A stretch of 64,000 nucleotides of DNA from Acidimicrobiales bacterium. GTDB taxonomy: Bacteria > Actinomycetota > Acidimicrobiia > Acidimicrobiales > Palsa-688. The position numbers were made by a program, and so were the translations under genes. The notes below the pieces were generated by a model. The model did no database searches and was not told where the DNA came from. It saw only the letters and a program-made list of their open reading frames with translations. Shown here piece after piece: positions 3,310 to 54,533 of this stretch (positions within the stretch are counted from its first letter, which is position 1; the number at the start of each line of letters is the position of its first letter). The stretch is from NCBI GenBank assembly GCA_965276635.1, contig CBDIBC010000002.1, positions 102,528 through 166,527 on the forward strand, given 5' to 3'.

Positions 3310-3320
3310 CGGTCGGTCTC

Positions 3321-36124: not shown

Positions 36125-36203
36125 CGGGCCCAGCGCCCGGGATTATCTGGTCGTCAACGTCGCCGCCGCAGGTAGCCCTGGTGCGACGGAGACGCTGCTG
36201 TTC

Positions 36204-36607: not shown

Positions 36608-36789
36608 GCCGCCGAGTAGGTCACCAACCGCTTCACCACGTATATCCACCCACCGGGTGGCCCCGGCGGTGTTGGCGCACCCCAGCTCGCCGAGGCCGGC
36701 CTGCGCGCCCGCAGCGCCCAGCTCTACGCCCGCATCGCCCGACGAACCGCCCTTGCAGCCGCCGCGGGCGCCCAACTGCACCGTCGGTC

Positions 36790-37220
36790 ACTTCCTTACC
36801 ATGGGTTCGGCGGGGAGCGAGCTTGCTGTGTGCTCCGACCTGGACGCTCCTTCGCCCCCCTCGGGGAGCGAATGCCTCGGGAACGATGAGATCGACTGGG
36901 AACCAGATCTCTTCGCGGCCTGCCCGGCGGCTCGTCACCCACGTCCCCGGCTCGTCGTGGCCGTCTCGCTGCATGAGACTGAACCCGGCGTCGGACATGA
37001 CCTGCTCGAGGAGGGGATCGTCGTCGAGCAGCGTCGGGTCGAGCGCCAGGTCGCCGTCGAAGGTGTAGGCGGCGACGGCGAGGTCTCCGCTGCCGGTGCG
37101 GAGGTAGACGGCCTGAGCGCCTACGACGACCAGGGCCGGGCGATGTGCGCGGCGGGCTTGCAGCGCGTCGAGCAACACTCGACGGGCGACCACAGTGCGG
37201 ATGTCGTCGGCGATGGTCAT
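36790..37220 (-). CDS. putative nucleotidyltransferase-fold (AbiEii/MNT-like) protein, probably C-terminally degraded
   Basis: MTIADDIRTVVARRVLLDALQARRAHRPALVVVGAQAVYLRTGSGDLAVAAYTFDGDLALDP; high GC3; ATGA overlap with an upstream small ORF. Confidence 0.3.
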
Positions 37221-38131
37221 GCCTTGCCGGCAGGGGGCGGCAGCCGATCGATCGGGGTCCGCCACTCCGCTTCATGGTCGGTCATCCACTCCAAGAGGGC
37301 TTCGCCTTCGGCGGGCATGCGCCCGTTGCCGGAGAGGGAATCGAACGATCTGACTGAGCCCGGCCCAGACGATGCCGTCGGCGGCCCGCGCGCGGTCGAA
37401 CGGACCGTAGTTCGACGGTCGCACCAGCACGACGTCGGCGCCTTCGTCGGCCTCGAGGCCGACGGCGGTGAGGTGCGCTGCGGGCAGCCGAGGCGATCGT
37501 TGTCCGGGGGGCGTACCGTCGGAGTCCGGACCCGGAGCGGCCACGAGATCACGGCCCGCCGCGCTGTCCTGGCCGACGTCGTCGCCCCCCCACCTGTCTC
37601 GCGACCTGCTCGCGGCCGAGCCCCTTGCCGAGGCTCTCGACGCCGACCAGGGCCGGTTCCAGTGGGACGCCAGCACGGTCAAGGTCGATTGGGCGCTGTC
37701 CGCTCCCGTGCTGTGGTTCGCGGAGGACGCTCGCGGAGCTGCAACGGTGCACGTCGCCGACAGCCTCAACGACCTCCCCCGGTCGTCCGCCGCCCTGGCT
37801 GTGGGCGACGTCTCGGCCTGGCCGTTCCTACCGCTGGGTCAGCGGGGCATGACCGACCCGATTCGCATGCCGCCCGGGCGGAGACCGTGGGGCCTACACC
37901 CACGTGTCTTGCGCCATCACCGGCGACGACAGCGGCGAGATCAGCGGGCGGTGGGACGCAGACGACGAGGCGGCGATGGCCCGGCGCTGCGTCGCGGCAC
38001 CAGCCGCCGCGTACCGCTCCGGGCCGAGCGGCGGGCGAGCGTTCTATGCAGCAACGCGTTGTGCTTCCGACGCGCTTCTGCACGAGACGACAGTGCCCCG
38101 AGCACCGTGCATGAAGCGCTGCTCCACCCTC

Positions 38132-38752
38132 TCAGCCCTGCAGCACGGCCGGGTCCCGTAGCACCGCCTGGTCGTGGGGCACTGGGTCGGTCATCTCGGC
38201 GACTCGCCGGTCGAACGCCGCGCAGAGTAGGTGGACGGCGACCTGGTGTACCTCTTGGACGGTGGGCGTGCCGGCGGCGACGATCGCGACGGTGTCGTCG
38301 CTGGCGGCGGCCAGCGGATTGGGGGCCGGCCCGGTGAAAGACCACACCACCATCCCAGCTGCCCGAGCGGCGTCCGCTGCGGCGACGACGTTCGGCGAAC
38401 GGCCGGAGGTGGAGAACGCGATCAGCACGTCGTCGGGACGTCCGTGGGCGCGCACCTGGCGGGCGAACATCTCCTGCGGGCCGTAGTCGTTGGTTAGGGC
38501 GGTGAGCGCGGAGCCGTCGACGTGGAGTGCGAGAGCGCTGAACGGGGGCCGCTCCTCGAGGTACCGGCCGACCATTTCTGACGCCAGGTGCTCGGCGTGG
38601 GCCGCGCTGCCGCCGTTGCCGACCGTGAGCAGCCGGCCGCCGTCGACCAGGCGGTCGGCCAGGCGCTTGCCCCAGGCCTGTACCTGTGTCAGCGCTGTCC
38701 GCTCGAAGTGATCGAGGGCGTCGCGCAGGGCGTCGAGGTGGGTGCCGGTCAT
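38132..38752 (-). CDS. gmhA: D-sedoheptulose-7-phosphate isomerase
   Basis: SIS domain; LTVGNGGSAAHAEHLASE..IAFSTSGRSPNVV. Confidence 0.85.
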   Translation of the reverse strand: MTGTHLDALRDALDHFERTALTQVQAWGKRLADRLVDGGRLLTVGNGGSAAHAEHLASEMVGRYLEERPPFSALALHVDGSALTALTNDYGPQEMFARQVRAHGRPDDVLIAFSTSGRSPNVVAAADAARAAGMVVWSFTGPAPNPLAAASDDTVAIVAAGTPTVQEVHQVAVHLLCAAFDRRVAEMTDPVPHDQAVLRDPAVLQG

Positions 38753-39819
38753 CGGTGTGTTCCTTCGCTGGTGGTGGCCGCCTTCACCGGCCGATCGGCG
38801 ACGTCGGCCAAGTAGGCGATATCAGCGGGGGCGGTGACCTGAGCGAGCGCGGCGACGACGTCGTCGACGCCGATGGCGGCCAGGCCGGGGTCCATTAGGG
38901 TGGCGTGGGGGTCGCCGCGCCGGCCGGCCCAGAGCGCCACGTGCTGGGGGCGCCCGGGTGGGGGGCCCCACTCGTCGGGCGGCACTGGGCCGTAGAGGGT
39001 CACCGACGGGGTGCCCGAAGCGAACGCCAGGTGGGCGACGCCAGTGTCCCCGCTCACCACCCGCCCCGCAGCCTGCACGGCGGCGATGAGCCCGTCGAGG
39101 TCCGTCGAACCGGCCAGCACCGGCGCCGGGACCGCGGCACGGCGGGCTACGTCGAGGGCCAGGTCCCGCTCAGCGACGGACCCGGTGAGCACCACCCGGC
39201 GCCCGGCGCGCGCCTCGGCGTCGAGGACGGCGGCGAAGCGCTCCGAGGGCCAGCGCCGGCTTGGCGCTCCGGCACCGGGATGGATGATCGTGGCGCCTAC
39301 GGCCGTCGGCGGCGCCGCGACCGGCGACCGGCCAAGCGCCAGGTCGGCCCGATCGGCGGGGATGCCGTTGGCGTCGAGCAGCCGGCACCAGCGGGCGACC
39401 TCGTGCTCACCCGGCCGCCAGTCCGGGAAGCCCCGGGTCTCGGGAATCGCCGGGTGGGCGAAGGCGATGAGCCGCTCTGGGCGGAGCGCCAGGAGGAGGG
39501 GCTGGCTGCCCGGGCCCCGCCCGTGCAGGTCGACGGCGACGTCCGGGAAGGCAAGCGCCGGGTCGAGGGACGTCAGCTCGTGCCTGTCGCTCAGGGCGTC
39601 CGCCAGGCCCTCGCGACGGACGAGCGGCCAGAAGGCAGCCGGGGCGACCAGGGTGAGGTGGTAGTCGGCGAAGTGGCGGCGGAGGGCCCGGAGCGCAGGG
39701 ATGCCGGTCAGCAGGTCGCCGAGGTTGAGCGCCCGCAGCACTACGACTCGGGGGCGCCCCGTCAAAGCCGGCGCCCCGTCGACGTCCGGCACCGGCGTCG
39801 ACGTCCGGCACCCGGTCAC
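38749..39819 (-). CDS. glycosyltransferase family 9 (heptosyltransferase)
   Basis: VVVLRALNLGDLLTGIPALRAL..TGSVAERD..VVSGDTGVAHLA; GTGA overlap with the hldE stop. Confidence 0.75.
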   Translation of the reverse strand: MTGCRTSTPVPDVDGAPALTGRPRVVVLRALNLGDLLTGIPALRALRRHFADYHLTLVAPAAFWPLVRREGLADALSDRHELTSLDPALAFPDVAVDLHGRGPGSQPLLLALRPERLIAFAHPAIPETRGFPDWRPGEHEVARWCRLLDANGIPADRADLALGRSPVAAPPTAVGATIIHPGAGAPSRRWPSERFAAVLDAEARAGRRVVLTGSVAERDLALDVARRAAVPAPVLAGSTDLDGLIAAVQAAGRVVSGDTGVAHLAFASGTPSVTLYGPVPPDEWGPPPGRPQHVALWAGRRGDPHATLMDPGLAAIGVDDVVAALAQVTAPADIAYLADVADRPVKAATTSEGTHR

Positions 39820-41237
39820 GTCCGGCCCCCGGCGACCTCGAGTAGGCCGGTGGTCGACCGACCGGAGAGGTAGGGGAGGACGACGACCTGGCCGCCCCAT
39901 TCGGCGAGCACCGTCTCCTCGGGCAGCTGCCGGGCGGAGTAGTCGCCGCCCTTGGCGAACACGTGGGGCCGGAGGCGACGCAGCGCCGTCACCGGCGAGT
40001 CCTCCCCGAAGACGATGACGTCGTCGACGCACCCCAGCGCCCGCAGCATGGCGACGCGGTCGGCTTCGGACACGACTGGCCGTCCTGCCCCCTTGAGGCG
40101 GCGAACCGACTCGTCACTGTTGACCGCCACGATCAGGCAGTCGCCGAGCCGGCGCGCGCCGGCGAGCAGCGAGATGTGGCCGGCGTGGAGCAGGTCGAAG
40201 CACCCACCGGCGACGACCACTCGGCCGCCAGCCGCCCGGATGCCGGCGGACAGCCCGTCGGCACCACCTTCGCAAGTCGGGCCGGCATTGGCCGGGGGAA
40301 CGGGTCGCGGTCCGGAGGCGACGGGGCTCGACATCGTCGCTGCGCCGCCGGCAGCGACGAACCGACCGGCACCCTCGACCGCCGCGGTCACGGCCTCGGT
40401 CAGCATCGCACCGCCGAGGATGGCGCTGGCCACGGCGGCGGCGAAGGCGTCGCCCGCACCGCAGGTGTCCCCGTCGACAGGGGTGACCGGGGCGACGAGA
40501 GGGGCCCCGGTGCCGGCGACGAGCAGGGCGCCGTCGGCGCCGAGGGTGGCCGCCACCGCACCCACCGACCAGTGGCCGAGTGCAGTCCGGGCGAGGGCGG
40601 TCAGCTCCCGCAGATCGTCGCCGGGCCAGGCGGGGCCGGTCCCGACGGTAGGCATTATCCCGGCGACCGCGGCCCTCAACTCCGCCCGGTTGGGGGTGAC
40701 GACGGTCACGCCCGGGACGGGGACCGGCCCGCGAGGGTGGGGATCCCAGACCGTGGGCATGCGGCGGTCGGCGACGGCAGCGCGCACGCCCGGGTGGGCG
40801 GCCATCCCCCGGCCGTAATCGGAGACCAGCACACTGCCGGCCCGCGCGAGGAGGTCGCTGAGGCGATCGGACAGCGGGGCAGTCGGAGCCTCGAGGCCGC
40901 CCCGATCGAGGCGGAGCAGCGGGTGGCTGCCGGCGCGGAAGCGGACCTTCTCCGGGGTGGCGCCGCCAGCGGGCAGGGCCACCACCTCGACCCCGAGGTC
41001 CCCGAGGAGCCGGCGGACCTCGGCGCCGGCCTCGTCGTCGGCCAGGGCGGTGAGGAAAACGACGTCGTGGCGGCCGGCGGCGAGCGATGCGGCCAACGCC
41101 GCGCCTCCGGCCCGGACCACCGCGCCATGCTCGTCGAGCACCGGGACGGGGGCGTCGGGGGCCACCCGTTCGATCGACCCGTGGACGTCGCGGTCGAGGA
41201 GGGCGTCACCGACGACGACCAGGGTCGGGCCGGTCAC
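39816..41237 (-). CDS. hldE: bifunctional D-beta-D-heptose 7-phosphate kinase / heptose 1-phosphate adenylyltransferase
   Basis: N-terminal ribokinase-like part (GAGDAF); C-terminal GGCFDLLHAGHISLLAGARRLGDCLIVAVNSDESV. Confidence 0.85.
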   Translation of the reverse strand: MTGPTLVVVGDALLDRDVHGSIERVAPDAPVPVLDEHGAVVRAGGAALAASLAAGRHDVVFLTALADDEAGAEVRRLLGDLGVEVVALPAGGATPEKVRFRAGSHPLLRLDRGGLEAPTAPLSDRLSDLLARAGSVLVSDYGRGMAAHPGVRAAVADRRMPTVWDPHPRGPVPVPGVTVVTPNRAELRAAVAGIMPTVGTGPAWPGDDLRELTALARTALGHWSVGAVAATLGADGALLVAGTGAPLVAPVTPVDGDTCGAGDAFAAAVASAILGGAMLTEAVTAAVEGAGRFVAAGGAATMSSPVASGPRPVPPANAGPTCEGGADGLSAGIRAAGGRVVVAGGCFDLLHAGHISLLAGARRLGDCLIVAVNSDESVRRLKGAGRPVVSEADRVAMLRALGCVDDVIVFGEDSPVTALRRLRPHVFAKGGDYSARQLPEETVLAEWGGQVVVLPYLSGRSTTGLLEVAGGRT

Positions 41238-42439
41238 CGGGCCACCGACGGGAGGACGGCGCCGACCATCTCGTCGTAGACCGAGGCGGTGGCAGCGGCG
41301 ACCCGGGGCCAGCCGTAGCGGTTCCGGGCGCGGGCCATCCCGGCCGCACCGAGCCGGCTGCGCGCCGCCGGGTCGGCGAGCAGGGCGGCAAGCACCGCCG
41401 CCAGCCGGTCGGGATCACCGGGTGGAACGTGGACACCGGTGACGCCATCGACGACCGACTCCTTCAGGCCACCGACCGCCGCGGCCACGACCGGCACCCC
41501 GCACGCCATGGCCTCGAGTGGCACGATGCCGAAGGGCTCGTAGGTCGGCACGCAGACCACCGTGTCGGCGGAGCGCAGCAGCGAGGGGAGTGCCCCGCGT
41601 GTCACCTGCCCGAGGAACCGCACCCGGTCGGCGACGCCGTGGGCCTGGGCGGCGTCGCCGAGGCGCACCACGTCGGGGTCGGTCTCGAGATCGTGCCGTG
41701 GGCCGCCGCCGGCGATCAGCAGCTCGGTGCCGGGCAGCGTTGCCAGCGCGGCGATGACATCGCCGACACCCTTGCGCTCGACGAGGCGACCGACCACAAC
41801 CAGGCGGTGCAGAGCGGAGCGGGCGGCCACCGGCCCGCCGGGTCGGAAGCACTTCAGGTCGACGCCGCAGGGCACGACCCGCAGCCGTTCGGCGGGCGCC
41901 CCGAGGCGCCGGAGCTCACCGACCTCGTCGTGGCAGGTGGCGATGACCCGGTCGGCCTCGGCCATGATCCACTCCTCGGTCCGCAGGCGGTCCGGGGGGC
42001 TCGTGTCCTCTGCCCCCTGGTGGCGGCGCTTGACGGCGCCGAGGGCGTGAAAGGTCTGCACGACCGGCACCCCGACCGGCCGAGCGGCGGCCAGCGCGGC
42101 GAGCCCGGACATCCAGAAGTGGGCGTGGACCGCGTCCGGGGGCCGCTTTTGCCACGTCTCGGCCAGTCCGTCGGCGAAGGCCTCCATGTAGGGGCGCAGG
42201 TTGTCCTTGGCGACGGCCTGGGGCGGCCCGGCATCGACGTGGTGGACCCGCACCCCGCCCTCCGCGGTCACCCAGCGGGGCAGGCCGGGGTCGTCGCGGC
42301 GGGTGTGGACGGTCACCTTGTGGCCGAGGTCGGCGAGGGCCCGGGCGAGCGAGCCGACGTGGACGTTCTGACCGCCGGCGTCCGCTCCGCCGAGCGCGGC
42401 AAGGGGGCTGGCGTGCTCAGACACCATCGAGATCAGCAT
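41234..42439 (-). CDS. glycosyltransferase family 4
   Basis: MLISMVSEHASPLAALGGADAGGQNVHV..EPFGIVPLEAMACGVPVV; strong GGAGGTGA RBS. Confidence 0.8.
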   Translation of the reverse strand: MLISMVSEHASPLAALGGADAGGQNVHVGSLARALADLGHKVTVHTRRDDPGLPRWVTAEGGVRVHHVDAGPPQAVAKDNLRPYMEAFADGLAETWQKRPPDAVHAHFWMSGLAALAAARPVGVPVVQTFHALGAVKRRHQGAEDTSPPDRLRTEEWIMAEADRVIATCHDEVGELRRLGAPAERLRVVPCGVDLKCFRPGGPVAARSALHRLVVVGRLVERKGVGDVIAALATLPGTELLIAGGGPRHDLETDPDVVRLGDAAQAHGVADRVRFLGQVTRGALPSLLRSADTVVCVPTYEPFGIVPLEAMACGVPVVAAAVGGLKESVVDGVTGVHVPPGDPDRLAAVLAALLADPAARSRLGAAGMARARNRYGWPRVAAATASVYDEMVGAVLPSVAR

Positions 42440-43365
42440 GTGGTCACCTCCAGGAGCTGGCGGTCCCAGTCGGCGAGGAACCGTCCGAGCCCGAAGCGTT
42501 CGACGGCGTAGTCCCGGGCGGCGCGTCCGGCGGCGGCGGCCTCCGCGGGCTCGTGCACGAACCGGCGCACTCCTTCGACCACCGTGTCGAGCCGGTTGGA
42601 CACCACGCCGGCCGAGCGTGGGACGACCTCGGCGGCCTCGGTGGTGGCCAGGGCCACGACCGGGAGGCCCAGCTGCATGGCCTCGATAAGGCTCAGCCCG
42701 AGCGAGGTCCACCGGTTGGGGTGGAAGTAGACCCGGCGTCGGGCCATCTCGGCGTGTAGCTCGGCCTGGGGCACGTCGCGCCCGCCGAAGGGCTCGGACC
42801 GCATCCCGAACAGGTCGACGGCGCTCGCGGCGCGCACCGGTGCGAGGAGGTCGGTCCCGGTCACCCGGCCCCGCCGGCCGGGATCATTGATGACGGCGAC
42901 GGCGGCGGCCAGTTCGCCGGTGTACCGGTGCCCTGGGTCGACGATGCCGTGCTCGATCACCGACGTCGGGGCTTTGCCGCTGTCCCAGAACAGCTGGTTG
43001 AACCACGTCACGTGCACGACGGGGATGTCCGTCCGGTCGGCCAGGGGGTGCACCATCGACGCTACGGGTCCATCCGGCGCGTTGTGCTCGAGGTACACGG
43101 CCGGCAGGTCGCGCCCGGCGCGCCGGCCGAGCCACTGCTGGACGAGGTCGAACTCCTCCCGGCGCTGCAGGACCACGACGTCGACGTCGGTGGCGTGCAG
43201 CTGGTCGGGGGTCAGCTCCTCGGCCGACGCCGGCCAGTTCCATGTCCGGGCCCGGCCGAGGCCGCCGGGACCCCGGCCCGGCAGGACGGGGAGCAGGTAG
43301 CAGTGAGAGCCCTGCACGAACGCCGTCGTCCACGATCCGTGCACGTGCCAGAGCAGGATCCTCAC
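42433..43365 (-). CDS. glycosyltransferase (GT4-like/GT1 fold)
   Basis: VRILLWHVHGSWTTAF..EPFGGRDVPQAELHAEMARRRVYFHPNRWTSLGLSLIEAMQLGLPVV; GTGA overlap with the upstream stop. Confidence 0.7.
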   Translation of the reverse strand: MRILLWHVHGSWTTAFVQGSHCYLLPVLPGRGPGGLGRARTWNWPASAEELTPDQLHATDVDVVVLQRREEFDLVQQWLGRRAGRDLPAVYLEHNAPDGPVASMVHPLADRTDIPVVHVTWFNQLFWDSGKAPTSVIEHGIVDPGHRYTGELAAAVAVINDPGRRGRVTGTDLLAPVRAASAVDLFGMRSEPFGGRDVPQAELHAEMARRRVYFHPNRWTSLGLSLIEAMQLGLPVVALATTEAAEVVPRSAGVVSNRLDTVVEGVRRFVHEPAEAAAAGRAARDYAVERFGLGRFLADWDRQLLEVTTC

Positions 43366-44405
43366 GAGCCGCCACCACCACTGCGGGCCGGGGTGCGCCG
43401 GGCGGCGAGCTTCTCGACGGCGTCGGTCACCTCGCCGACGGGTACCTCGTCGATGCACGGGTGACCGGGGACCGGGCACGTCCTGGCCCTGCACCCGCCG
43501 CAGCCGATGTCCTGCCGGCCGAGCAGCACGTGGTCGACCCGCCAGGGCCGCCACCGCACGGCCGGTACGGTCGGCGCGTACAGGCTGACGACCGGCGTGC
43601 CGACCGCCGCGGCCAGGTGGGCGGGCCCGGTGTTACCAACGACGACGGCCCCGGCGCCGGCAAGGACGCCGGCGAGGCCGGCGAGGTTGACGCAACCGCC
43701 CAGGTCGAGGGCGCCCGGTGCGGCGACCGAGGCGGTCAGGGCTGTCTCGTCCCGGCCGCCGGTCACGACCACGTCACGGCCGGCGCGGAGCAGGCGCTCG
43801 ACGAGCTCGCGGTCGCGCACCGGGCTCCACGCCCGGGCCGTGACCGAGGCGCCCGGATGCACCACGACGTAGCCGGCGGCCGGGAGTCCGGCCGGGGGTG
43901 CCCCGAGCAGCTCGGGGCGCACCATCAGGCTTCCGTCGTCCCGGCTCTGGAGGTGAAAGCCCATTGCGGCGCCGAGCGACAGTGACCGCTCCACCTCGTG
44001 GATGTCGTCGTCGACGTGGTGGCGCACGTCGAGCAACGACCCGGGGTAGTCGACGCTGATGGCCCCGATAGTCCTGACGCCGGCGAGGCGCAGCAGCAGT
44101 GCGAGCGGCAGCGGGCTCTGGTGGAACGACGTGGCGACGACGGCAGTATGGACCTCCGCCGCCCGCACCGCGTCGACCAGGTCCTCGACCGCCCCCCGCT
44201 CGACGGGGGAGGACACGCCCTCGATCCACGGCGCCCGTCCGACGATGACCGCGTCGACGCCAGGGAGAAGCCCGGCCGCCGCGGCCCCCGCCGGGCTGCA
44301 CAGATAGGTGACCGGACCCTCGGCGGCGCACGCCCGGGTGAGCGGTCCGGTCAGGAGGACGTCGCCGACGCTGTCCATGCGGGCGACGAGGATCCCGCTC
44401 AACAC
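43362..44405 (-). CDS. glycosyltransferase family 9 (heptosyltransferase)
   Basis: VLSGILVARMDSVGDVLLTGP..VVVGNTGPAHLAAAVGTPVVSLYAPT. Confidence 0.75.
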   Translation of the reverse strand: MLSGILVARMDSVGDVLLTGPLTRACAAEGPVTYLCSPAGAAAAGLLPGVDAVIVGRAPWIEGVSSPVERGAVEDLVDAVRAAEVHTAVVATSFHQSPLPLALLLRLAGVRTIGAISVDYPGSLLDVRHHVDDDIHEVERSLSLGAAMGFHLQSRDDGSLMVRPELLGAPPAGLPAAGYVVVHPGASVTARAWSPVRDRELVERLLRAGRDVVVTGGRDETALTASVAAPGALDLGGCVNLAGLAGVLAGAGAVVVGNTGPAHLAAAVGTPVVSLYAPTVPAVRWRPWRVDHVLLGRQDIGCGGCRARTCPVPGHPCIDEVPVGEVTDAVEKLAARRTPARSGGGGS

Positions 44406-46009
44406 ATCCCCGCGAGGACCACGTCGACCGCCTGCAGGAGGTCGACGGCGACCACCGGTGCCGCCGCCACCTCGGCGGGGCGCGTCACCCGGGTCGGCAC
44501 CAGCACGCCTCGCGCGCCGGCGGCGCGTGCCGCGGCGAGGTCCGAGCCGATGTCTCCGATCACCGCGCTCGACGCCGCCGCCACCCGCACCACGGCCGCG
44601 GCCGCCTGCACCAGCCCGGGGGCCGGCTTCCGGCACGCGCAGCCGTCGGCAGGGGCGTGCGGGCAGACCTGCCAGGTGTCGAAGGGGCCGAGCAGCTCGT
44701 CCACCCGCCGGTTGATCGCCAACACCTCGTCGAGGGTGGTGTGGCCCCGACCGACCGCCGCCTGGTTGGTGACCACTCCGGTCCGCATCCCGGCGGCCCG
44801 GGCCCGCGCAACCGCCCGGCGGGCACCGGGCATCAGGGCGACCCGGTCGGGGTCACGGTTGCCGGGCACGTCGACGATCAGGGTCCCGTCGCGGTCGAAC
44901 AGGATCAGCTCAGGTCGCCACGAGGTGTCAACCCGTCGGGAGCGGGGGCGGAGCCGGTAGGGCCGGAGGGCGGCCGAGGGCCGCAGCGCCAGCGGCGAGC
45001 GGCCCAGGCCGAGGGGCGAGCCCTCCTCAGCCCGGAGCGCACCCGGGACCGCGGCCCACCCGCGTGCGGCGTGGAACACGGCGGCGGGAGGGATGAGCGC
45101 CGAGGTGACGAGCATGGTCGCCACCTCGGAGCGGGTGCGGGGGCCTGGGGCGATGCGCTCCGCTGCGAACGCTGCCGTCGTCGCGGCCCAAGTCGCGCCG
45201 AGCGCCCCGGCGAGCGCCCGGCGGCCGGTCAGCGCAGCGGCAACGGCTCCTGCGGCGGCGGCGGTCGACACGGAATAGCGGCCGTTGCGCGCCGGTCCGG
45301 CGCCCACTGCGTCGCGCCAGCCGGTGCCGTGGAGGGCCCGCATCATGGCGTCGTCGGCGTTGCCGGCCTGGGTCCGGACGCTCACCCAGCGGCCCGACGG
45401 CCGGACAGGGTGCTCGACAGTGCGGGCACCCTTGACGATGACGTACCCGGCGTTGGCGACCCTAAGGCCGAGGTCGGCGTCCTCGCGGTAGGCGCGCGGG
45501 AAGCGCTCGTCGAATCCGCCCACCTCGGCGAGCACCTCCCGCCGGTAGGCCATGTCGGCGGTGATCCACCGGGCTGCCTCCAGGCCGGCGACGCTGCGCT
45601 CCCAGTCGGTCGGCCGCCGGTCGGCCGCCAGCGGCACGCGCACCACGCCCTGCGAGGCGGCGACCTCGACCGGGAGGCCAGTCAGGTCGTCGAGGAGCTG
45701 GAGCGCCCAGCCGGGTTCCGGCGCGACGTCGTCGTCGAGGAACACCACCCACGGGCTGACCGTCGAGCGCCAACCGGCGTTGCGGGCAGCGGCCGGGCCG
45801 CGCCCACCGGAGCGGAGCACTCGCACGTCGGGGCTGACGTCGAGGGGGCTGGCGGACGCCGGGGGCCGGTCGTCGACCACCACTACGGCATCGGGCCGGG
45901 GGCCTTCGCTGTCGGCTAGCGCGGTGAGGAGGGTGCGCAGCGATGGCCGAGCGACGGTCGGCACGACCACGCTGTACCCGATCGGGTCCGGGCCGGTGAT
46001 GCCGCTCAC
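44399..46009 (-). CDS. gmhB: fusion protein: GT2 glycosyltransferase domain + D,D-heptose 1,7-bisphosphate phosphatase (HAD) domain
   Basis: N-terminal YSVVVPTVARPSLRTLL..VVVVDD..FLDDD; C-terminal ELILFDRDGTLIVDVPGNRDPDRVALMPGARRAV..GVVTNQAAVGRGHTT..CACRKPAPG..GDIGSDLAAARAAGARGVLV; GTGA overlap with the upstream stop. Confidence 0.75.
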   Translation of the reverse strand: MSGITGPDPIGYSVVVPTVARPSLRTLLTALADSEGPRPDAVVVVDDRPPASASPLDVSPDVRVLRSGGRGPAAARNAGWRSTVSPWVVFLDDDVAPEPGWALQLLDDLTGLPVEVAASQGVVRVPLAADRRPTDWERSVAGLEAARWITADMAYRREVLAEVGGFDERFPRAYREDADLGLRVANAGYVIVKGARTVEHPVRPSGRWVSVRTQAGNADDAMMRALHGTGWRDAVGAGPARNGRYSVSTAAAAGAVAAALTGRRALAGALGATWAATTAAFAAERIAPGPRTRSEVATMLVTSALIPPAAVFHAARGWAAVPGALRAEEGSPLGLGRSPLALRPSAALRPYRLRPRSRRVDTSWRPELILFDRDGTLIVDVPGNRDPDRVALMPGARRAVARARAAGMRTGVVTNQAAVGRGHTTLDEVLAINRRVDELLGPFDTWQVCPHAPADGCACRKPAPGLVQAAAAVVRVAAASSAVIGDIGSDLAAARAAGARGVLVPTRVTRPAEVAAAPVVAVDLLQAVDVVLAGMC

Positions 46010-47688
46010 GCCGGCACCGCGCGTCGCTGCCGGAGCACCCCCGGTCCCCGCCGGGGTCGGCGGACGACGAACGGCCCGAGGACCAGCAGGTCGACGGGGG
46101 CCGAGCCGAAGCATTCCATTGCGTCCCGGGGGTCGTCGACCATCGGCCTCCCGGCGGTGTTGAGGCTGGTGTTGACCAGCACCGGGACGCCGGTCCGCTG
46201 CTCGAAGGCCACGAGCAATTCGTGAACGAGGGGTTCGGTCGCCCGGTCTACGGACTGCACTCGCGCCGAGCCGTCGACGTGGATCGCCGCACCGAGGCGC
46301 GCCTCCCACGCGGGGCGCACTCGGTGGGTGAAGAGCATGTACGGGCTGGGAAACGGGCCGTCGAAGATCTCGCTCGCCCGCTCAAGGGTCACCATCGGCG
46401 CCACCGGCCGGAACTGCTCGCGACCCTTGACCGTGTTGAGCCGGATCAGCGTCTCGGCCCGGCGGGGGTCGGCCAGGAGACTGCGGTGCCCGAGCGCCCG
46501 GGGGCCGTACTCGCTGCGGCCCTGGAACCACGCCACGATCCCGTCGGCGGCGAGCACCTCGGTGGTCGTCGCCGTCAGGTCGTCCGGTCGCTCGTAGGGG
46601 AGGTCGGCTTCGAGCAGCCACCCCTCCAGCTCGTCGTCGGACCAGCTCCGCCCGAGGGCGGCGGTGCGCAACGGCTCAACCGGGTCGCCGAGGTGGTGAG
46701 CCTGGTAGAGAGCACCGCCGAGGGCCGTGCCGGCGTCGCCTGAGGCTGGCTGGACCCACACCTGCTCAAAGGGCCCGTGGCGCAGCAGGTGGGAGTTGGC
46801 GACGCAGTTGAGCGCCACGCCGCCGGCCATCGTCAGGCACCGGTCTCTCGTACGGCCGTGGAGCCAGCCGGCGAGGTCGAGGAGGACCTCCTGCAGGCGG
46901 TGCTGGACGCTGCTCGCCAGGTCGGCGTGGCGGTGGTCCCAGGCGCCCTCACCGTCGCGGGCCGGTGCCAGCTGGGCCCAGGGGATCGTCCCCACGCGGA
47001 AGCCGCCCTCGCCGTCGGCGAAGATCAGCTCCCGGAGGACCGGCAGGTGCCGCGGCTCGCCGTAGGAGGCCATGGCCATCACCTTGTACTCGTCGGAGGA
47101 GCGCTTGAAGCCGAGGTGCACGGTCAGCTCCTCGTACATGAGGCCGAGCGAGTGCGGCAGCTCCTGGGTCCGGTACACCTCGAGGTCGCCGGCAACGGAC
47201 CGGCCAGCGAGGTGGGTCGTAGTCTCACCCCGCCCGTCGAGGACCAGCACGCTCGAGTCTCGAAACGGTGCGGCGAGGTAAGCGGAGGCGGCGTGGGCGA
47301 CGTGGTGGCGCACGTAACGGAGCCGGCCGCCGTCGATGCCCGGAATCGCCGACTCCAGGAACGAAGGGGCCCTATGGGCGTAGAACGTCCGCATCGGCTC
47401 CCACTCGTCCGCAGCCAGGTCGGCGCCCGAGGTACCAGGCGCCCCCAGCAGCGACGGGTCGTAGGAGTAGGTGACAGCATCGACATCACCAGGTGAAACC
47501 CCGGCCTTACGGAGGCACCACCGGGCAGCATTCACGGGCAACTCCCATGTCGAGAACGGCACCGCCTCCTTGCCGTGCTTGATTCGCGTGAAGCGCTCCT
47601 CCTCGGCCGCAGCCACGATCCGACCGTCGATGACCAGCGCTGCGGCCGGGTCGTGGAACACTGCGTTGATACCGAAAACGACCGCCAA
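46006..47688 (-). CDS. carbamoyltransferase (NodU/CmcH/TobZ family)
   Basis: MAVVFGINAVFHDPAAALVIDGRIVAAAEEERFTRIKHGKEAVP..RYVRHHVAHAASAY..GGVALNCVANS. Confidence 0.85.
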   Translation of the reverse strand: MAVVFGINAVFHDPAAALVIDGRIVAAAEEERFTRIKHGKEAVPFSTWELPVNAARWCLRKAGVSPGDVDAVTYSYDPSLLGAPGTSGADLAADEWEPMRTFYAHRAPSFLESAIPGIDGGRLRYVRHHVAHAASAYLAAPFRDSSVLVLDGRGETTTHLAGRSVAGDLEVYRTQELPHSLGLMYEELTVHLGFKRSSDEYKVMAMASYGEPRHLPVLRELIFADGEGGFRVGTIPWAQLAPARDGEGAWDHRHADLASSVQHRLQEVLLDLAGWLHGRTRDRCLTMAGGVALNCVANSHLLRHGPFEQVWVQPASGDAGTALGGALYQAHHLGDPVEPLRTAALGRSWSDDELEGWLLEADLPYERPDDLTATTTEVLAADGIVAWFQGRSEYGPRALGHRSLLADPRRAETLIRLNTVKGREQFRPVAPMVTLERASEIFDGPFPSPYMLFTHRVRPAWEARLGAAIHVDGSARVQSVDRATEPLVHELLVAFEQRTGVPVLVNTSLNTAGRPMVDDPRDAMECFGSAPVDLLVLGPFVVRRPRRGPGVLRQRRAVPA

Positions 47689-47747
47689 TTTTTGGCCTCC
47701 TGCCTCGCGATGACCCAGCGACAGTGATACCCGGCGCCAACCAAGTG

Positions 47748-47779
47748 AATCCTCTGCAGATAATCACCTGCAGAGGATT
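47748..47779. promoter_or_regulatory. perfect 12-bp inverted repeat (candidate operator) in the divergent promoter
   Basis: AATCCTCTGCAG-ATAATCAC-CTGCAGAGGATT between the carbamoyltransferase (minus) and GT2 (plus) starts. Confidence 0.5.
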
Positions 47780-47789
47780 TACTAGGCCA

Positions 47790-48659
47790 ATGGGCACATC
47801 GCAGCGGGACCGACCGCTAACCCTCGTCGTGGCGACCATGAACCGCCGGTCCGAGGTGCTGGCGACGCTGGGCCGGGCCCTCGACCGCCCCTTCCCGCCG
47901 CCGGTGGTCGTCATCGACAACGCCTCGGCCGACGGGACGGCGGCCGCCGTCCGAGCGACCTTCCCCGATGTGGCGCTGCTGGCGCTGCCGGCCAACCTCG
48001 GTGCCGCCGCCCGCACCGTCGGCGCCCGCTTGGCGACCACCCCGCTGGTCGCCTTCGCCGACGACGACTCGTGGTGGGAGGCGGGGGCCCTCGAGCGGGC
48101 CACCGCCTGCTTCACCGAGGACCCGGCGCTCGGGCTGCTCACCGGACGGGTCCTCGTCGGCACGGAGGCGACGCTTGATCCCACGTCTGCGGCGATGGCA
48201 GCTGGCCCGCTTGACGAGTGGCTGCGCCCGTCGGCCTCCGGCCGTCGAGGCGTGACCGGCTTCCTGGCCTGCGCCGCGGTCGTGCGACGCGAGCCGTTCC
48301 TCGCCTCCGGCGGGTTCGAGCCCCACCTGGTGATCGGCGGAGAGGAGGAGCTCGTCGCCCTGCGGCTCGCCACGGCCGGATGGAAGCTCGTCTACGACCC
48401 CGAGGTGGTCGTCCGTCACCACCCCTCACCCTCCCGTGACGCCCACCGCCGCCGACGACTCCTGGCCCGCAACGCCGTGCTGACGGCCTGGCTGGCCTAC
48501 CCGCCGCCGCAAGCGCTGCGGCGGAGCGTCGCAGCTTTGACCGGCCCCGAAGGTGTCGTCGGCGCGGCGAGCGCCCTGCGCTCGGCAGGGTGGGCGGCCG
48601 GCCGGCGCCACCCGGTCCCCCAAGCAGTCGGGGCGGCGTTCGAGGCCCTCGCCGGCTGA
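47790..48659 (+). CDS. glycosyltransferase family 2
   Basis: LTLVVATMNRRSEVLATLGRAL..VVVIDNASADGT..AFADDD. Confidence 0.8.
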   Translation: MGTSQRDRPLTLVVATMNRRSEVLATLGRALDRPFPPPVVVIDNASADGTAAAVRATFPDVALLALPANLGAAARTVGARLATTPLVAFADDDSWWEAGALERATACFTEDPALGLLTGRVLVGTEATLDPTSAAMAAGPLDEWLRPSASGRRGVTGFLACAAVVRREPFLASGGFEPHLVIGGEEELVALRLATAGWKLVYDPEVVVRHHPSPSRDAHRRRRLLARNAVLTAWLAYPPPQALRRSVAALTGPEGVVGAASALRSAGWAAGRRHPVPQAVGAAFEALAG

Positions 48660-48670
48660 GCGCCGGCGGT

Positions 48671-49585
48671 TCACGAGACGTACTGGCGGGCCTTCGAACG
48701 GTCGTGGTCGGCGTCGAGGAGGCGCAGGCCGACCTCCACGTCGGCACCGACGTTCCGGCGAGCAGCGACCACCCACCACCCTCCCCTGAGTGCCTCGACC
48801 ACCGCCCGAAGGCTGTGGCCGTCGGCCGGCGCGCTGCGCAGCAGCGCCGCACTCCGGAGCGCTGCCGAGGACACCGGTCGGCGAAGCCACGTGAACCAGA
48901 GGGTGTTGCGGATCCCTTGCCGGCGACGTAGGTGCGGGTCGCGCAGCACCGATGCCTGGTGGTGGATCTCGAGTTCCGGCACGTAGGCCATCTCCCAGCC
49001 GGCGTCGGCCAGGTCGGTTCCGGTGAGCTCCTCCTCGCCTCCGATGAGGAGCCGCCCCGAGAAGCCGCCCACGGCCCGGAACGCCTCCGCTCGTACCGTC
49101 GATGCCCCGGCCAGGAAGCTGAGCAGCGGTGCGCCGGGGCCGCCCGCCGGGCGGGGGAGGGGGCTGCGGTCCATCTCCTCGGACATGGCGTCGGTGGTCC
49201 CGCCCGGCTCGACGACGATGCGAGCGGTGACCACCGCCAGGTTTGGTCGCGCCTGTAGCAGGCCTACGGCCCGGCGGAGCGACCCTGGCGACCACCACGT
49301 GTCGTCGTCGCAGAACGCCACGAACCGGGTGCCTGCCAGCATGACCCCCACGTTGCGGCCGGCGCCGCCCATGTTGCAGCCGAGCGGCACCACGGTCACC
49401 CCGGGGAAGTCCCGCCGCACCGTCGCCACCGTGGCGTCGGCGGAGCCGTTGTCGACGACCACGATGCCGGGGTCCTCCTCGAGGGTCTCGAGGAGGTGGA
49501 GGGTGCGAGTCAGCTCGTCGCACCGGTCCCGTGTGATGATGACGACGGTGAGGTCTTCGCGTAGCGACGTCGGGCTCGCGGCCAT
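48671..49585 (-). CDS. glycosyltransferase family 2 (paralog of 47790-48659)
   Basis: LTVVIITRDRCDELTRTLHLL..VVVDNGSADAT..AFCDDD. Confidence 0.8.
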   Translation of the reverse strand: MAASPTSLREDLTVVIITRDRCDELTRTLHLLETLEEDPGIVVVDNGSADATVATVRRDFPGVTVVPLGCNMGGAGRNVGVMLAGTRFVAFCDDDTWWSPGSLRRAVGLLQARPNLAVVTARIVVEPGGTTDAMSEEMDRSPLPRPAGGPGAPLLSFLAGASTVRAEAFRAVGGFSGRLLIGGEEELTGTDLADAGWEMAYVPELEIHHQASVLRDPHLRRRQGIRNTLWFTWLRRPVSSAALRSAALLRSAPADGHSLRAVVEALRGGWWVVAARRNVGADVEVGLRLLDADHDRSKARQYVS

Positions 49586-49586
49586 G

Positions 49587-50558
49587 TCAGCCGACCGGTC
49601 GCAGCAGCTCGACCAGACGGTCCCGGTCGGTGAGGAGGGCGGCCCGGCCGTCCTCGGTGCAGGCCGCCACCCGGTCCCGTCCCTCGGCGGAACGGCACCA
49701 GCCGACCGCCTCGTCGAACGCGTCGTGACTGACGGCTTCGGCGCTGATCACCGCCGGCCACCCGAGTGCCCTGGCCTGTGCGCCGACCTTGCCCCCGCCT
49801 GCGACGGGGTCGACGGCCACCACCGGCACCCCCGCGGCCAGCCCGAGGACCAGTCCGTGCAAGCGGGTCGTCACCACCACGTCGACGCGCGCTACTGCGG
49901 CCGCGAACTGCTCCGGGGTGGACAGCTGGCGGGCGTCGCCCGGGTGCAGGCGGGTGTCGAGTTCGACGACGGCGAGGTCGGTGCCGGTCAGCCACCCGTC
50001 GAGGCAGCGGTGGACGCCGTCGTGGCGCTGCCGGTTCCCGTACTCGGGCTGGGAGTGGCTCCGGATGACCGCCGCCACCGCCACGTCGGCCACCGGGCGG
50101 TGGGCCGTCCCGAGGGCCAGGTCGACCGCGGCCCGGCCCGGCTCGTCGCGTGCCAGGACCGTGACGGGGGCGAGGGCCGGCGTGCGGTCCACGACCGATA
50201 CCCCGACGGCCACCCGCTGCGAGCCGGTGAACCGGGCGAAGAGCTCCTCCACCAGCTCGCCGCCGGCGGGCCCGCAGACGAACACCAGGTGACCGACCGT
50301 CGCCGGCGGGACGTCGTGCCACGCCAGCTGGCCGCGGCGTCGGAAGGTGGCGGCCATGGCCACGTCGTGGTCGATGCCGGCGTCGTCGAGCCACCGGCTG
50401 ACGGTGCGTTGTGCGAGGAGGTCGCCAGCGGTGACCTCGGCGGTGTCGAAGCTGAACCACCCGGTCACGAGGACACCCCTGGCGCCGACGGGTGCGTACG
50501 GGTTAGGACATGCCAGGGCACTCCTGGCGGTCGACGTCGGGGTGGACTGGCTGAGCAT
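49587..50558 (-). CDS. polysaccharide pyruvyl transferase family protein
   Basis: VVTTRLHGLVLGLAAGVPVVAV; start uncertain (ATG 50558 or downstream). Confidence 0.6.
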   Translation of the reverse strand: MLSQSTPTSTARSALACPNPYAPVGARGVLVTGWFSFDTAEVTAGDLLAQRTVSRWLDDAGIDHDVAMAATFRRRGQLAWHDVPPATVGHLVFVCGPAGGELVEELFARFTGSQRVAVGVSVVDRTPALAPVTVLARDEPGRAAVDLALGTAHRPVADVAVAAVIRSHSQPEYGNRQRHDGVHRCLDGWLTGTDLAVVELDTRLHPGDARQLSTPEQFAAAVARVDVVVTTRLHGLVLGLAAGVPVVAVDPVAGGGKVGAQARALGWPAVISAEAVSHDAFDEAVGWCRSAEGRDRVAACTEDGRAALLTDRDRLVELLRPVG

Positions 50559-51811
50559 CGCTCTCCGATCTGTGGCGGGCGTTCGCTGACTTGGACCTAC
50601 CCGGATCTGCCGGTCACATCGACGACGACTCGAGTGGTGACGCAGCTTGTCGAGGAGACTGTGCAGGCGGCGCGACACCTGCATCTGGCTTACCCCGAAC
50701 TCCTCGCCGACGCGATGCCGAGCGCATCGGGGCCGCCACCCTCGCCGAAGGATCAAGACCGACCCCCATCACCGTCAAGCACTGGCCCTTGGTGCACCCT
50801 CGCGCAAGGCTGGCATTCCCTCCGACTAGGACCGCTCGCCAACTACTCGCCGCCATCCTACCGATCAGGCTGCTGCCCGCGCCGGCTGCGGCCGCCGGAA
50901 GCCCCTTCGAGCAGCTCGACCCCCGCCATGACCTTGGGGTCACGACGCGCTCAGGCAACCCGGTAGCGGTCAGCGAAGACCGACCCGTCGAAATCAAGCC
51001 TGCCGACTGGGGCGCCCTGGCGCCGCTCCGCGGCCTGAACAGTGAGAGCCGCCCACCCTTCGCTTCGACCGAGGTGCTCACCGATCTCACGGAAAGACAT
51101 ACCCCGTTGGGGTGCCGGGCTGTCATGCCGGCCGGCCGAGGCCGCGTCGGCTGACGCCGGAGTCGAAGGGCCTCGTGCTCGATGGCCAGTACGTCCGGCC
51201 GTTTGCTCTCGATGCCGAGGTAGCCCTTGAGAACCGCGACGTGCTTGGTCAGGTAGTCCGACGGCATAGCCGTAGCGCAGTCGGGCGCGAGGCTGAACAG
51301 GAACGAGTCCGTGCAGAGCTCGCGGCCACTCTCGGATGCCCGTTCATCAAGGCGATCGCAGTGGCGGCGCAGCATTGCCATCGTCTCGCCATCGACGTGA
51401 AAGGTGCGGCCACGTCGCGTCTTGGTCGTCTTAACCCTTCCGGACTCGCCGATGGCGCTGTCTACTGAGATCTGGCCCTTGGACCACCCGATGCCGGATC
51501 GACGGACGCCGACGAGCTCGCCGCGACGCATGCCGGTGACGGCCCCGAGGAGAAGGATGGCAGCGAACATCGGGAACGACGTCCGCTGCGGTCGACAACA
51601 ACAAGTGGAGCTCGTCGACTTCGGGCGGCGTCCGCTCCTTCGAGGAGTGAGTATTTGTGGGCAGCTCGAAGTCGGCCATCGGGTTGCGACTGGACATCCC
51701 GCGTCGCTTTGCCTACCGGAAGAACGGGGCGTGGAGACTTTTGGCTTGCCTAAGCCGGGAGTTGCTCTGAGCATCCCCCCGTTGGACGGACACTTCGTAT
51801 AGGAGGAGTCC

Positions 51812-54523: not shown

Positions 54524-54533
54524 AAGTGCGGGT

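Follow-up and report, generated by a model that had tools for sequence, protein, structure and literature searches.

The stretch of DNA analysed here, a 64,000-nucleotide segment from an Acidimicrobiales bacterium (hereafter the window), carries a compact locus of 11 intact genes that encode the enzymes of a nucleotide-heptose pathway together with glycosyltransferases (GTs), an O-carbamoyltransferase and a pyruvyl transferase family protein. The locus spans exactly positions 38132-50558, from the ATG start codon of the pyruvyl transferase gene (50558) to the stop codon of gmhA (38132). The minus-strand open reading frames (ORFs) between 38132 and 50756 and a plus-strand family 2 glycosyltransferase (GT2) gene were scanned with Pfam profiles, and NCBIfam equivalog models were scanned as well. 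An earlier note on this DNA had proposed a heptose and glycosyltransferase locus of precisely this extent, and its gene content stands: all 11 genes are intact, and every family that it named was recovered in the Pfam scans, including two GT9 enzymes, a GT4 and a GT4-like enzyme, and three GT2 enzymes, one of them fused to a GmhB-type phosphatase. Each window protein aligns over its full length with an orthologue from Acidiferrimicrobium sp. IK (60-78% identity), and the gene starts were set by alignment to these orthologues and by inspection of start codons; the true starts lie far downstream of those of the longest ORFs, which over-extend upstream, as is usual at 75% GC. Since the synteny of these genes recurs across dozens of genomes, the locus lies far beyond what chance would produce.

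Eight of the genes, all on the minus strand, form the core of the locus. The first encodes an O-carbamoyltransferase of the NodU/CmcH/TobZ type (46006-47688; 560 aa), with a TTG start codon at 47688 and a GGAGG ribosome-binding site; its membership in the NodU/CmcH family, already proposed in the earlier note, is borne out by matches to Carbam_trans_N (9e-51) and Carbam_trans_C (9e-64). It is followed by a GT2 domain fused to a GmhB-type heptose-1,7-bisphosphate 7-phosphatase (44399-46009; 536 aa; Glycos_transf_2 and HAD), a first GT9 heptosyltransferase, GT9a (43362-44405; 347 aa; Glyco_transf_9), a short GT4-like enzyme of the GT-B type, GT1L (42433-43365; 310 aa; Glycos_transf_1, 3e-9), a GT4 enzyme that is an MshA/sucrose-phosphate-synthase-like paralogue (41234-42439; 401 aa; GT4 domains, up to 9e-38), the kinase and nucleotidyltransferase HldE (39816-41237; 473 aa; PfkB and CTP_transf_like), a second GT9 heptosyltransferase, GT9b (38749-39819; 356 aa; Glyco_transf_9), and, as the last gene of the operon, the sedoheptulose-7-phosphate isomerase GmhA (38132-38752; 206 aa; SIS_2, 1.4e-25). 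All seven junctions overlap, either by 4 nt (GTGA or ATGA; the GTG start of GT9b overlaps the hldE stop codon as GTGA) or by 7 nt, and the eight core genes thus form one translationally coupled operon. The beginning of the GT9b gene contains a 15-nt direct repeat, GTGCCGGACGTCGAC, present twice with a 19-nt period (39778-39811, minus strand), so that the peptide PDVD is duplicated in an N-terminal extension that is not conserved.

The remaining three genes constitute an accessory module. The pyruvyl transferase gene (49587-50558, minus strand; 323 aa; PS_pyruv_trans) and that of the glycosyltransferase GT2a (48671-49585, minus strand; 304 aa; Glycos_transf_2, 3.6e-19) make up a second small operon, in which GT2a starts 1 nt past the pyruvyl transferase stop codon. 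GT2b (47790-48659, plus strand; 289 aa; Glycos_transf_2, 1.5e-14) is convergent with GT2a and divergent from the core operon.

The GT2-GmhB fusion protein is 100% identical to a database entry (P0001), and its nearest named relatives come from Acidiferrimicrobium sp. IK (66%) and from Acidimicrobiales metagenome-assembled genomes (MAGs), all within the class Acidimicrobiia and at 64-66% identity, in agreement with the high-GC Gram-positive-type genome that the earlier note had read from the sequence. A scan of one genome per species recovered relatives of the fusion in at least 505 species genomes, and the best 80 of these were taken for a comparison of the loci. Apart from one 'Candidatus Binatia' MAG, these 80 belong to the Actinomycetota; among them are members of the Acidimicrobiales, Thermoleophilia, Gaiellaceae and Euzebyales (a MAG), and of the genera Nocardia, Amycolatopsis, Actinomadura, Geodermatophilus, Cellulomonas, Promicromonospora, Georgenia and Rothia, besides others. 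Genes in the related loci were labelled by tblastn with the window proteins; gene calling based on GC at third codon positions performed poorly at 72-76% GC, with antisense shadow ORFs often winning. The canonical order of the conserved core is carbamoyltransferase, GT2-GmhB, GT9, GT4-like, GT4, GmhA, HldE, GT9. All eight core genes are present in 49 of the 68 loci with enough flanking sequence, and 31 of these 68 show the canonical order; in the window, as in the three relatives nearest to it (L001, L002 and L004), only the order of the tail departs from this and reads HldE, GT9, GmhA. The carbamoyltransferase is found in 63 of the 68 loci, the two extra GT2 genes in 28 and 18, and the pyruvyl transferase in 12, while the genes that flank the cluster vary between relatives. 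Contrary to what the earlier note had believed, such a gene set is hence not unexpected in an actinobacterial context: with at least 505 fusion-bearing species genomes, and the eight-gene core conserved in Acidimicrobiia and Thermoleophilia, in a Euzebyales MAG and in many Actinomycetes orders, it is widespread in this phylum.

Other lineages recurrently carry additional genes that the window lacks, namely an enzyme resembling UDP-GlcA (UDP-glucuronic acid) decarboxylases and dTDP-glucose dehydratases, of the cwgA type (in ~32-36 loci), a classical short-chain dehydrogenase/reductase (SDR) encoded between hldE and the second GT9 gene (~28-40 loci), and a UDP-glucose dehydrogenase (~17 loci). 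Loci with such extra genes include L009, L010, L012, L019, L031, L035, L038 (between hldE and the second GT9 gene), L052 (7172-8326) and L056 (6876-8201). The SDR, decarboxylase and dehydrogenase genes hint at GlcA or xylose, or at a modification of the heptose, in those lineages.

The broad distribution also bears on the idea that the genes belong to a septacidin- or hygromycin B-type heptose cassette for a secondary metabolite. Actinomycetes are reported to use ADP-heptose derived from sedoheptulose-7-phosphate for septacidin and hygromycin B (Tang et al. 2018, cited in PMC9978623 and PMC10948575), so that the Gram-positive use of a nucleoside diphosphate (NDP)-heptose of this origin is a trait shared with the window locus. 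The Streptomyces cassettes are, in contrast, narrowly distributed and lie inside natural-product clusters with aglycone and tailoring genes, whereas the eight-gene core recurs in at least 49 of 68 genomes over several classes, as would fit a housekeeping or envelope function, and its flanking genes differ from relative to relative. The earlier note had itself named a known cassette with matching neighbours as the counter-scenario to its proposal; when this was checked, no polyketide synthase, non-ribosomal peptide synthetase, aminocyclitol, nucleoside or tailoring genes were seen beside the locus, whose neighbours are FHA-domain and Ser/Thr kinase genes, hypothetical ORFs and fragments of insertion sequences (IS). 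With a core that is phylum-wide, we have discarded this explanation, which strikes us as extremely improbable.

A recent island from a Gram-negative donor, or a diderm host with a true lipopolysaccharide (LPS) core cluster, might be suspected from the GC content of the locus (74.5%, versus 68.0% for the rest of the window), from IS3-type transposase fragments just upstream (52123-52824), and from a protein with an OmpA domain encoded nearby. However, in all 38 of the 38 related loci compared, the cluster exceeds its flanks in GC (median difference +3.1 points), and the skew is therefore better seen as intrinsic to the cluster than as a trace of recent transfer; moreover, the best relatives of every protein are found in the Acidimicrobiales, at 60-78% identity. 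Among the ~45 window ORFs scanned there are no Kdo (3-deoxy-D-manno-octulosonic acid) transferase or lipid A genes, and OmpA-like peptidoglycan-binding domains occur in Actinomycetota too. Recent horizontal transfer, raised by the jump in GC and the IS fragments, can be set aside on these grounds, and we rate the Gram-negative or diderm origin as very improbable.

The gene set has a known counterpart in Streptomyces. In S. coelicolor, the 12 genes cwgA-L (SCO6179-6190) form a sigma-E-controlled 'putative cell wall glycan' operon, as Hong, Paget & Buttner 2002 are cited in later papers (PMC6767563, PMC5839063, PMC5882110). The operon is a direct target of sigma-E and is induced by vancomycin (PMC6767563), properties that point to the cell envelope. 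Its published annotations name CwgA a nucleotide-sugar dehydratase (bioRxiv 10.1101/2025.04.11.648403), CwgE a putative heptosyltransferase (PMC5882110), and CwgD, CwgH, CwgI and CwgJ a 'dehydratase', a phosphoheptose isomerase, a bifunctional synthase/transferase and a transferase, respectively (PMC5839063). For comparison, Streptomyces clusters were taken from plasmid-collection records. The 12-gene operon of Streptomyces sp. CA-256286 (L085) encodes, in this order, an epimerase/dehydratase, a carbamoyltransferase, a glycosyltransferase, a HAD hydrolase, a GT9, two glycosyltransferases, a SIS protein, RfaE2, a second GT9 and two further glycosyltransferases, and this annotation matches that published for cwgA, D, E, H, I and J position by position. 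It possesses counterparts of 10 of the 11 window proteins (43-65% identity), and a cluster of S. rimosus has counterparts of all 11, the pyruvyl transferase included. The old label 'dehydratase' for CwgD is explained by the resemblance of its HAD domain to the bifunctional HisB, which is also visible in the NCBIfam scan. In this scheme, the window proteins GT9a, GT1L, GT4, GmhA, HldE and GT9b would be CwgE-, F-, G-, H-, I- and J-like, and GT2b and GT2a would be the CwgK- and CwgL-like accessory enzymes.

The locus thus shares with the cwg operon the same families and the core order of carbamoyltransferase, GT2, HAD phosphatase, GT9, GT, GT, GmhA, HldE and GT9, with two GT2 enzymes in addition. 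It differs in that the first gene, cwgA (of the nucleotide-sugar dehydratase/UDP-GlcA-decarboxylase family), has no tblastn match in the whole window; in that GT2 and phosphatase are fused, whereas they are separate genes in Streptomyces; in the order of the tail (HldE-GT9-GmhA versus GmhA-HldE-GT9); and in the position of the two extra GT2 genes, which are placed upstream (one on the opposite strand), next to an added pyruvyl transferase gene that S. rimosus has as well. The window locus also carries a palindromic element and lacks a sigma-E-type promoter motif. On balance, the locus is probably a copy of the cwg-type operon of the Actinomycetota, with the equivalence to SCO6179-6190 drawn from the order of annotations and not from alignment. 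The earlier note did not recognise the locus as a characterised system; this holds for the product, which is uncharacterised for the Streptomyces cwg operon and the window locus alike, but not for the operon type. The locus is a further copy of a known and widespread operon family that has been recognised since 2002.

A reduced variant is present on plasmid p1 of Streptomyces fungicidicus (L084, 9355-16543), where an epimerase, a carbamoyltransferase, a GT2 without HAD domain, a GT4, a SIS protein and RfaE2 are encoded next to a transporter of the major facilitator superfamily; it has neither GT9 genes nor the GT4-like gene and may make a different heptose product.

The ~100-bp divergent intergenic region between the genes for the carbamoyltransferase and GT2b contains a perfect 12-bp inverted repeat, AATCCTCTGCAG-N8-CTGCAGAGGATT, at 47748-47779, which is unique in the window. 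Related palindromes occupy the same place in other loci, about 30 to 156 nt ahead of the carbamoyltransferase start. The form found in L004 is AATCACCTGCAG-N8-CTGCAGGTGATT (~8221-8262), while the palindrome in the corresponding position of L002 (~8127) is built on ATCTGCAG and diverges further; the Acidimicrobiales form can be written as AATC(A/C)(C/T)CTGCAG-N8-CTGCAG..GATT. A compact form, GAATCACCTATAGGTGATTC, occurs in the more distant lineages Actinomadura, Georgenia and Propionibacteriaceae, and it is degenerate in a Streptosporangiaceae MAG. Besides those in the window, L004 and L002, sites lie at 8271 in L012, 8248 in L046, 1210 in L051, 8263 in L066, 8178 in L068, 8271 in L070, 2972 in L073 and 8261 in L079. 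In 1.68 Mb of locus sequence there are eight copies of the octamer CCTATAGG, each of them upstream of the operon: seven are 31-150 nt before the carbamoyltransferase start, and the eighth is 1038 nt before it, in a locus where an epimerase gene comes ahead of the carbamoyltransferase gene and the octamer ahead of both. No Rfam family matches the palindrome. Deviations in its half-sites do not compensate for one another, a pattern that speaks for a protein operator rather than an RNA hairpin, and the element is best described as operator-like. None of the Streptomyces loci showed the motif. A scan for sigma-70 promoters was uninformative, and a terminator scan found one site where 1.6 are expected by chance. 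We attribute the sigma-E-type promoter to the regulation of Streptomyces and not to the gene set as such.

The enzymes for the synthesis of the nucleotide-heptose are recognisable throughout, although they are divergent members of their families and do not qualify as strict equivalogs of those that serve LPS. With the NCBIfam gmhA model GmhA reaches 144 bits (cut-off 209), but its best NCBIfam matches are without exception models of phosphoheptose isomerases; the protein shares 74% identity with its L001 orthologue. HldE aligns end to end (residues 6-467 of 473) with the NCBIfam model PRK11316 of the E. coli-type bifunctional HldE, whose architecture it has, while it stays below the thresholds for rfaE_dom_II (172 versus 181.5 bits) and domain I (115 versus 345). 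The GmhB domain is the best supported step. Its HAD-IIIA and histidinol-phosphatase domain models pass the NCBIfam cut-offs; the closest solved relatives of the fusion are GmhB enzymes, led by that of M. tuberculosis (4pnh, 9e-21); and the DxDxT nucleophile motif and the Cys/His/Cys/Cys residues of the zinc loop are invariant in 52 homologues. In an AlphaFold2 model of the fusion with a mean confidence (pLDDT) of 94.8, a fold search superimposes the HAD domain on GmhB structures with a TM-score of 0.80 and a root-mean-square deviation of 2.4-2.5 Å. The GT2 domain has a generic GT-A fold with matches to K4CP, WrtF, ppGalNAc-T2 and PcManGT, which give no clue to the acceptor.

No epimerase domain was detected by Pfam in the 11 proteins, and when the epimerase that accompanies the cluster in other lineages was run by tblastn against the whole window, neither it nor any extended SDR gave a match. 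Because an HldD-type epimerase is thus missing from the locus and not detectable in the window, the predicted product is the D-glycero-beta-D-manno form, and the pathway should stop at the D,D-heptose unless an epimerase is encoded elsewhere in the genome. Of the complete pathway to ADP-heptose of the L-glycero-beta-D-manno form advocated in the earlier note, GmhA, HldE and the GmhB-GT2 fusion are all in place, but the L-glycero configuration is one for which no enzyme was found in the window. The nucleotidyltransferase domain of HldE ends with YLSGRSTT (gene at 39816-41237). The arginine of this motif is present in 44 related loci and is replaced by tyrosine in 11 (Nocardia, Amycolatopsis, Prauserella and others) and by histidine in 4. 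Since this ending resembles (F/L)XXGRSTT, the 'STTR5' motif, which is reported to mark heptose nucleotidyltransferases that accept CTP and UTP as well, yielding CDP- and UDP-heptose (PMC11573728), the donor nucleotide is perhaps not ADP alone.

Earlier work has documented how NDP-heptose enzymes are spread in Actinobacteria (Tang et al. 2022, as cited in PMC11573728), and the tridomain NDP-heptose synthetases that this citation attributes to the phylum belong to the same pathway. GmhA and HldE are separate and non-adjacent in the window, where GT9b lies between them. An in-frame fusion of the two, giving a tridomain isomerase/kinase/nucleotidyltransferase, is found inside the same cluster in L057, L066 and L079 (Pseudokineococcus, Georgenia).

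Both GT9 proteins score 80.6 bits against a Pfam Glyco_transf_9 cut-off of 22 (E-values of 1.5e-22 and 1.4e-22), and the only sequence relatives of the pair in the PDB are WaaC, WaaF and 3tov. GT9a aligns with the solved WaaC over residues 6-282, and the solved relatives of GT9b are 3tov, WaaF and WaaC. The equivalog cut-offs for WaaC and WaaF (134-185 bits) are nonetheless missed, with scores of 57-58 bits, as is that for WaaQ. Compared with the Streptomyces clusters, GT9a is 56% identical to an annotated GT9 and GT9b 43-49% to GT9 proteins. GT9a has an N-terminal GD motif and a C-terminal CxxC-x4-C-x6-C motif. The latter, GCGGCRARTCPVPGHPC (residues ~311-326), is not present in GT9b and could be a metal site.

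One may ask in this context whether the GT9 enzymes heptosylate a protein that is subsequently extended, as the TibC/AAH heptosyltransferases do on autotransporters. ADP-heptose enzymes with the GT9 fold do modify proteins, according to work cited in PMC11573728, and no lipid-carrier enzyme is linked to the cluster. The four-cysteine motif of GT9a could be read in the same way, as TibC-type protein heptosyltransferases have an iron site; similar cysteine motifs are, on the other hand, present in WaaF- and WaaQ-type LPS enzymes. The GT9 proteins match WaaC, WaaF and 3tov, with no TibC-type chain above threshold, and no conserved candidate substrate protein is encoded beside the cluster in the 80 loci. 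We consider protein glycosylation improbable.

The best solved relatives of GT4, both over the full length, are the sucrose-phosphate synthase Tll1590 (1.8e-64) and the MshA protein of C. glutamicum (2.4e-51), while its score with the NCBIfam MshA model (248.8 bits) is below the cut-off of 462. An inositol-phosphate acceptor of the MshA kind is not supported: of the phosphate ligands of MshA (K78, Y110, T134 and R154), three of four are not conserved in the alignment, a comparison that is a lead and not a test. With a profile of 34 orthologues of GT1L, GT4 enzymes (sucrose-phosphate synthase, TarM, GlgM, PimB', MshA and WaaG) are matched solely in their C-terminal nucleotide-sugar domain, and in this comparison the N-terminal ~180 aa of GT1L have no recognised relative. 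GT2a is 53% identical to the last glycosyltransferase of the Streptomyces sp. CA-256286 operon, and GT2b is 46% identical to the penultimate one. The best NCBIfam match of these stand-alone GT2 proteins is the small-molecule glycosyltransferase MftF, which in the case of the fusion is the second-best GT2 match after EpsD.

Among the decorating enzymes, the carbamoyltransferase aligns over its full length with the solved proteins NovN, GdmN and TobZ (9e-91 to 1e-76). The polysaccharide pyruvyl transferase claimed in the earlier note is likewise supported: PS_pyruv_trans matches above its cut-off (38.6 versus 25.3 bits), if only in the C-terminal part of the protein (the last ~40 profile positions), and orthologues carry the same annotation in L001 (PF04230; 60% identity) and in the S. 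rimosus cluster (47.5%). CsaB-type enzymes pyruvylate secondary cell-wall polymers in Bacillota (PMC6030368), and the window system would resemble theirs in tying a member of the PS_pyruv_trans family to a non-classical wall glycan. Its match to the CsaB equivalog is distant (26.5 bits; cut-off 213), its pyruvyl transferase is an accessory enzyme found in 12 of the 68 loci, and no SLH domain is present among the window ORFs scanned.

Established knowledge of these families allows the following route to be proposed. GmhA would convert sedoheptulose-7-phosphate into D-glycero-D-manno-heptose-7-phosphate, the kinase domain of HldE would form the beta-1,7-bisphosphate, and the GmhB domain of the fusion would remove the 7-phosphate; the heptose would then be activated with ADP, and possibly also with CDP or UDP in view of the GRSTT motif, and no epimerisation at C-6 would take place. 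Soluble or peripheral Leloir glycosyltransferases would build a short, defined oligosaccharide at the cytoplasmic side, to which the two inverting GT9 enzymes would contribute two alpha-heptoses, the retaining GT4 and GT4-like enzymes an alpha-linked hexose or N-acetylhexosamine (HexNAc), and the inverting GT2 domain a beta-linked sugar. The TobZ/NodU-type enzyme would O-carbamoylate the glycan, most likely on a heptose by analogy with WapO of Pseudomonas, and in this lineage two further GT2 enzymes and the pyruvyl transferase would extend the glycan and add a pyruvate ketal. We predict an oligosaccharide of ~5 residues, or of up to 7 when GT2a and GT2b take part. The product, either glycolipid or wall-linked oligosaccharide, would be put together in the manner of an LPS core on the membrane's inner face and handed over to export machinery encoded elsewhere.

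A glycoconjugate of the cell envelope is, in our view, the most likely destination of this oligosaccharide, at about an even chance, and the main reason is the control of the operon by sigma-E in Streptomyces. The earlier note had envisaged a carbamoylated and pyruvylated heptose envelope glycan, S-layer glycan or glycolipid; the gene content does predict a heptose glycoconjugate with both groups, while a location in an S-layer or the wall stays conjectural. Several observations weigh against such an envelope glycan of the cwg type. A hydropathy scan found no multi-pass membrane protein among the 11 proteins; the locus contains no gene for a flippase, ABC exporter, priming phosphoglycosyltransferase, polymerase or LCP-type ligase; and in the 80 related loci no transporter, priming enzyme, polymerase or ligase gene is found repeatedly. 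The acceptors of the solved proteins nearest to GT4 are soluble and phosphorylated. None of the GmhA, HldE, GmhB and GT9 proteins reaches the NCBIfam equivalog cut-offs. The tie to SCO6179-6190 is one of annotation order, and no match to AAC-N15-18-CGTC, a relaxed form of the sigma-E-type promoter (AAC-N16/17-CGTCT), lies within ~300 nt upstream of the carbamoyltransferase or the pyruvyl transferase gene. Finally, a search of the available library of papers yielded no report of heptose in an actinobacterial wall polymer and none that ties heptose to cwg.

Some of these observations would equally suit the main rival, a soluble cytoplasmic heptose oligosaccharide or small-molecule glycoside that serves as a stress protectant or is cofactor- or thiol-like, with GT4 acting on a small and possibly phosphorylated acceptor in the manner of MshA, sucrose-phosphate synthase or GlgM. 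All 11 proteins look soluble, nothing for transport, priming or ligation is conserved beside the core in the 80 loci, the best solved relatives of GT4 comprise maltose-1-phosphate synthase in addition to Tll1590 and MshA, and the preference of the stand-alone GT2 enzymes for the MftF model can be read in the same sense; furthermore, salt and cold shock each induce cwgA in S. coelicolor (PMC13011467; bioRxiv 10.1101/2025.04.11.648403). Yet the Streptomyces operon belongs to the sigma-E regulon for cell-envelope stress (PMC6767563), the combination of 5-7 glycosyltransferases with carbamoylation and pyruvylation is typical of surface glycans, and the LPS core is likewise made by soluble enzymes, with an unlinked flippase. 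The poor conservation of the MshA phosphate ligands also speaks against this reading, again as a lead and not as a test. Taken together, we regard a soluble glycoside as unlikely and favour the envelope glycoconjugate.

The closest functional parallel to the locus, by analogy of enzyme sets, is the inner core of Pseudomonas LPS. There, the structure GalN-HepII(7-O-carbamoyl)-HepI is made by two heptose (Hep) transferases, a transferase for galactosamine (GalN) and WapO, a carbamoyltransferase with O-7 of HepII as its target (PMC8005017). That system (WaaC, WaaF, a WaaG-type GalN transferase and WapO/PA5005, with GmhA, HldE and GmhB) and the window locus have in common an ADP-heptose pathway, two GT9 enzymes, a GT4 enzyme acting next, an O-carbamoyltransferase of the NodU family, an entirely cytoplasmic set of enzymes and an unlinked flippase. 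They differ in that the host phylum of the window is monoderm and without Kdo2-lipid A, for which reason the acceptor must be another one, and in that the window locus lacks the heptose kinases WaaP, WapP and WapQ as well as HldD, so that its heptose would be of the D,D and not of the L,D form.

Extending this parallel, it is possible, though in our estimate rather doubtful, that Actinomycetota near-universally build an LPS-inner-core-like oligosaccharide on a conserved envelope acceptor, composed of two D,D-heptoses, a hexose added by GT4 and an O-carbamoyl group, and pyruvylated in some lineages, with genes that share ancestry with the waa core genes and are governed by a dedicated palindromic operator. 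If true, a new class of glycoconjugate would be added to those of the Gram-positive envelope, and many Actinomycetota, among them the human-associated genera Rothia, Nocardia and Actinomadura, would be sources of NDP-heptose agonists of innate immunity. Should the glycan be found, Gram-positive bacteria would have an envelope or stress component that spans a phylum, and it would bear on NDP-heptose as a supposedly Gram-negative immune signal. What the comparison itself provides is the definition of an eight-gene core over several classes of Actinomycetota, a family assignment for each of the 12 cwg genes, a pathway whose end point, barring an epimerase gene elsewhere, is D,D-heptose, the finding that functions for export or ligation are not carried along with the cluster, and an enzyme set that parallels the carbamoylated di-heptose inner core of Pseudomonas. 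The copy in the window adds nothing to testability beyond the existing Streptomyces models, but the identity of the actinobacterial heptose glycan remains a good question.

The 2 kb just downstream of gmhA (36140-38130) show several short coding-like stretches that switch frame and strand in a GC-frame plot and may be degraded genes; they have no Pfam or NCBIfam match and are not conserved beside the cluster in relatives. Beyond them, a gene with FHA and LuxR-type helix-turn-helix (HTH) domains (35378-36124, plus strand) is divergent from a Ser/Thr protein kinase gene with a C-terminal OmpA-like domain (33072-35338, minus strand), which is split by a frameshift into 34742-35338 and 33072-34706 and represents either a pseudogene or an assembly error. 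On the other side, a 463-aa ORF with atypical codon-position GC and no family match (50614-52005, minus strand) separates the locus from an IS3-family transposase fragment with HTH_21 and a truncated rve domain (52123-52824, plus strand), behind which an ORF has a weak match to a transposase-type HTH (53990-55174, plus strand). The left half of the window is rich in acyl-CoA dehydrogenase, thiolase-like, cytochrome P450 and TetR genes (519-4997 and 14154-15890, minus strand; 17666-20452; 23713-25275, plus strand); the stop-to-stop ORFs at 519-4997 overlap extensively, partly from upstream over-extension at this GC content, and the region as a whole has the appearance of a lipid or steroid-type catabolic neighbourhood.

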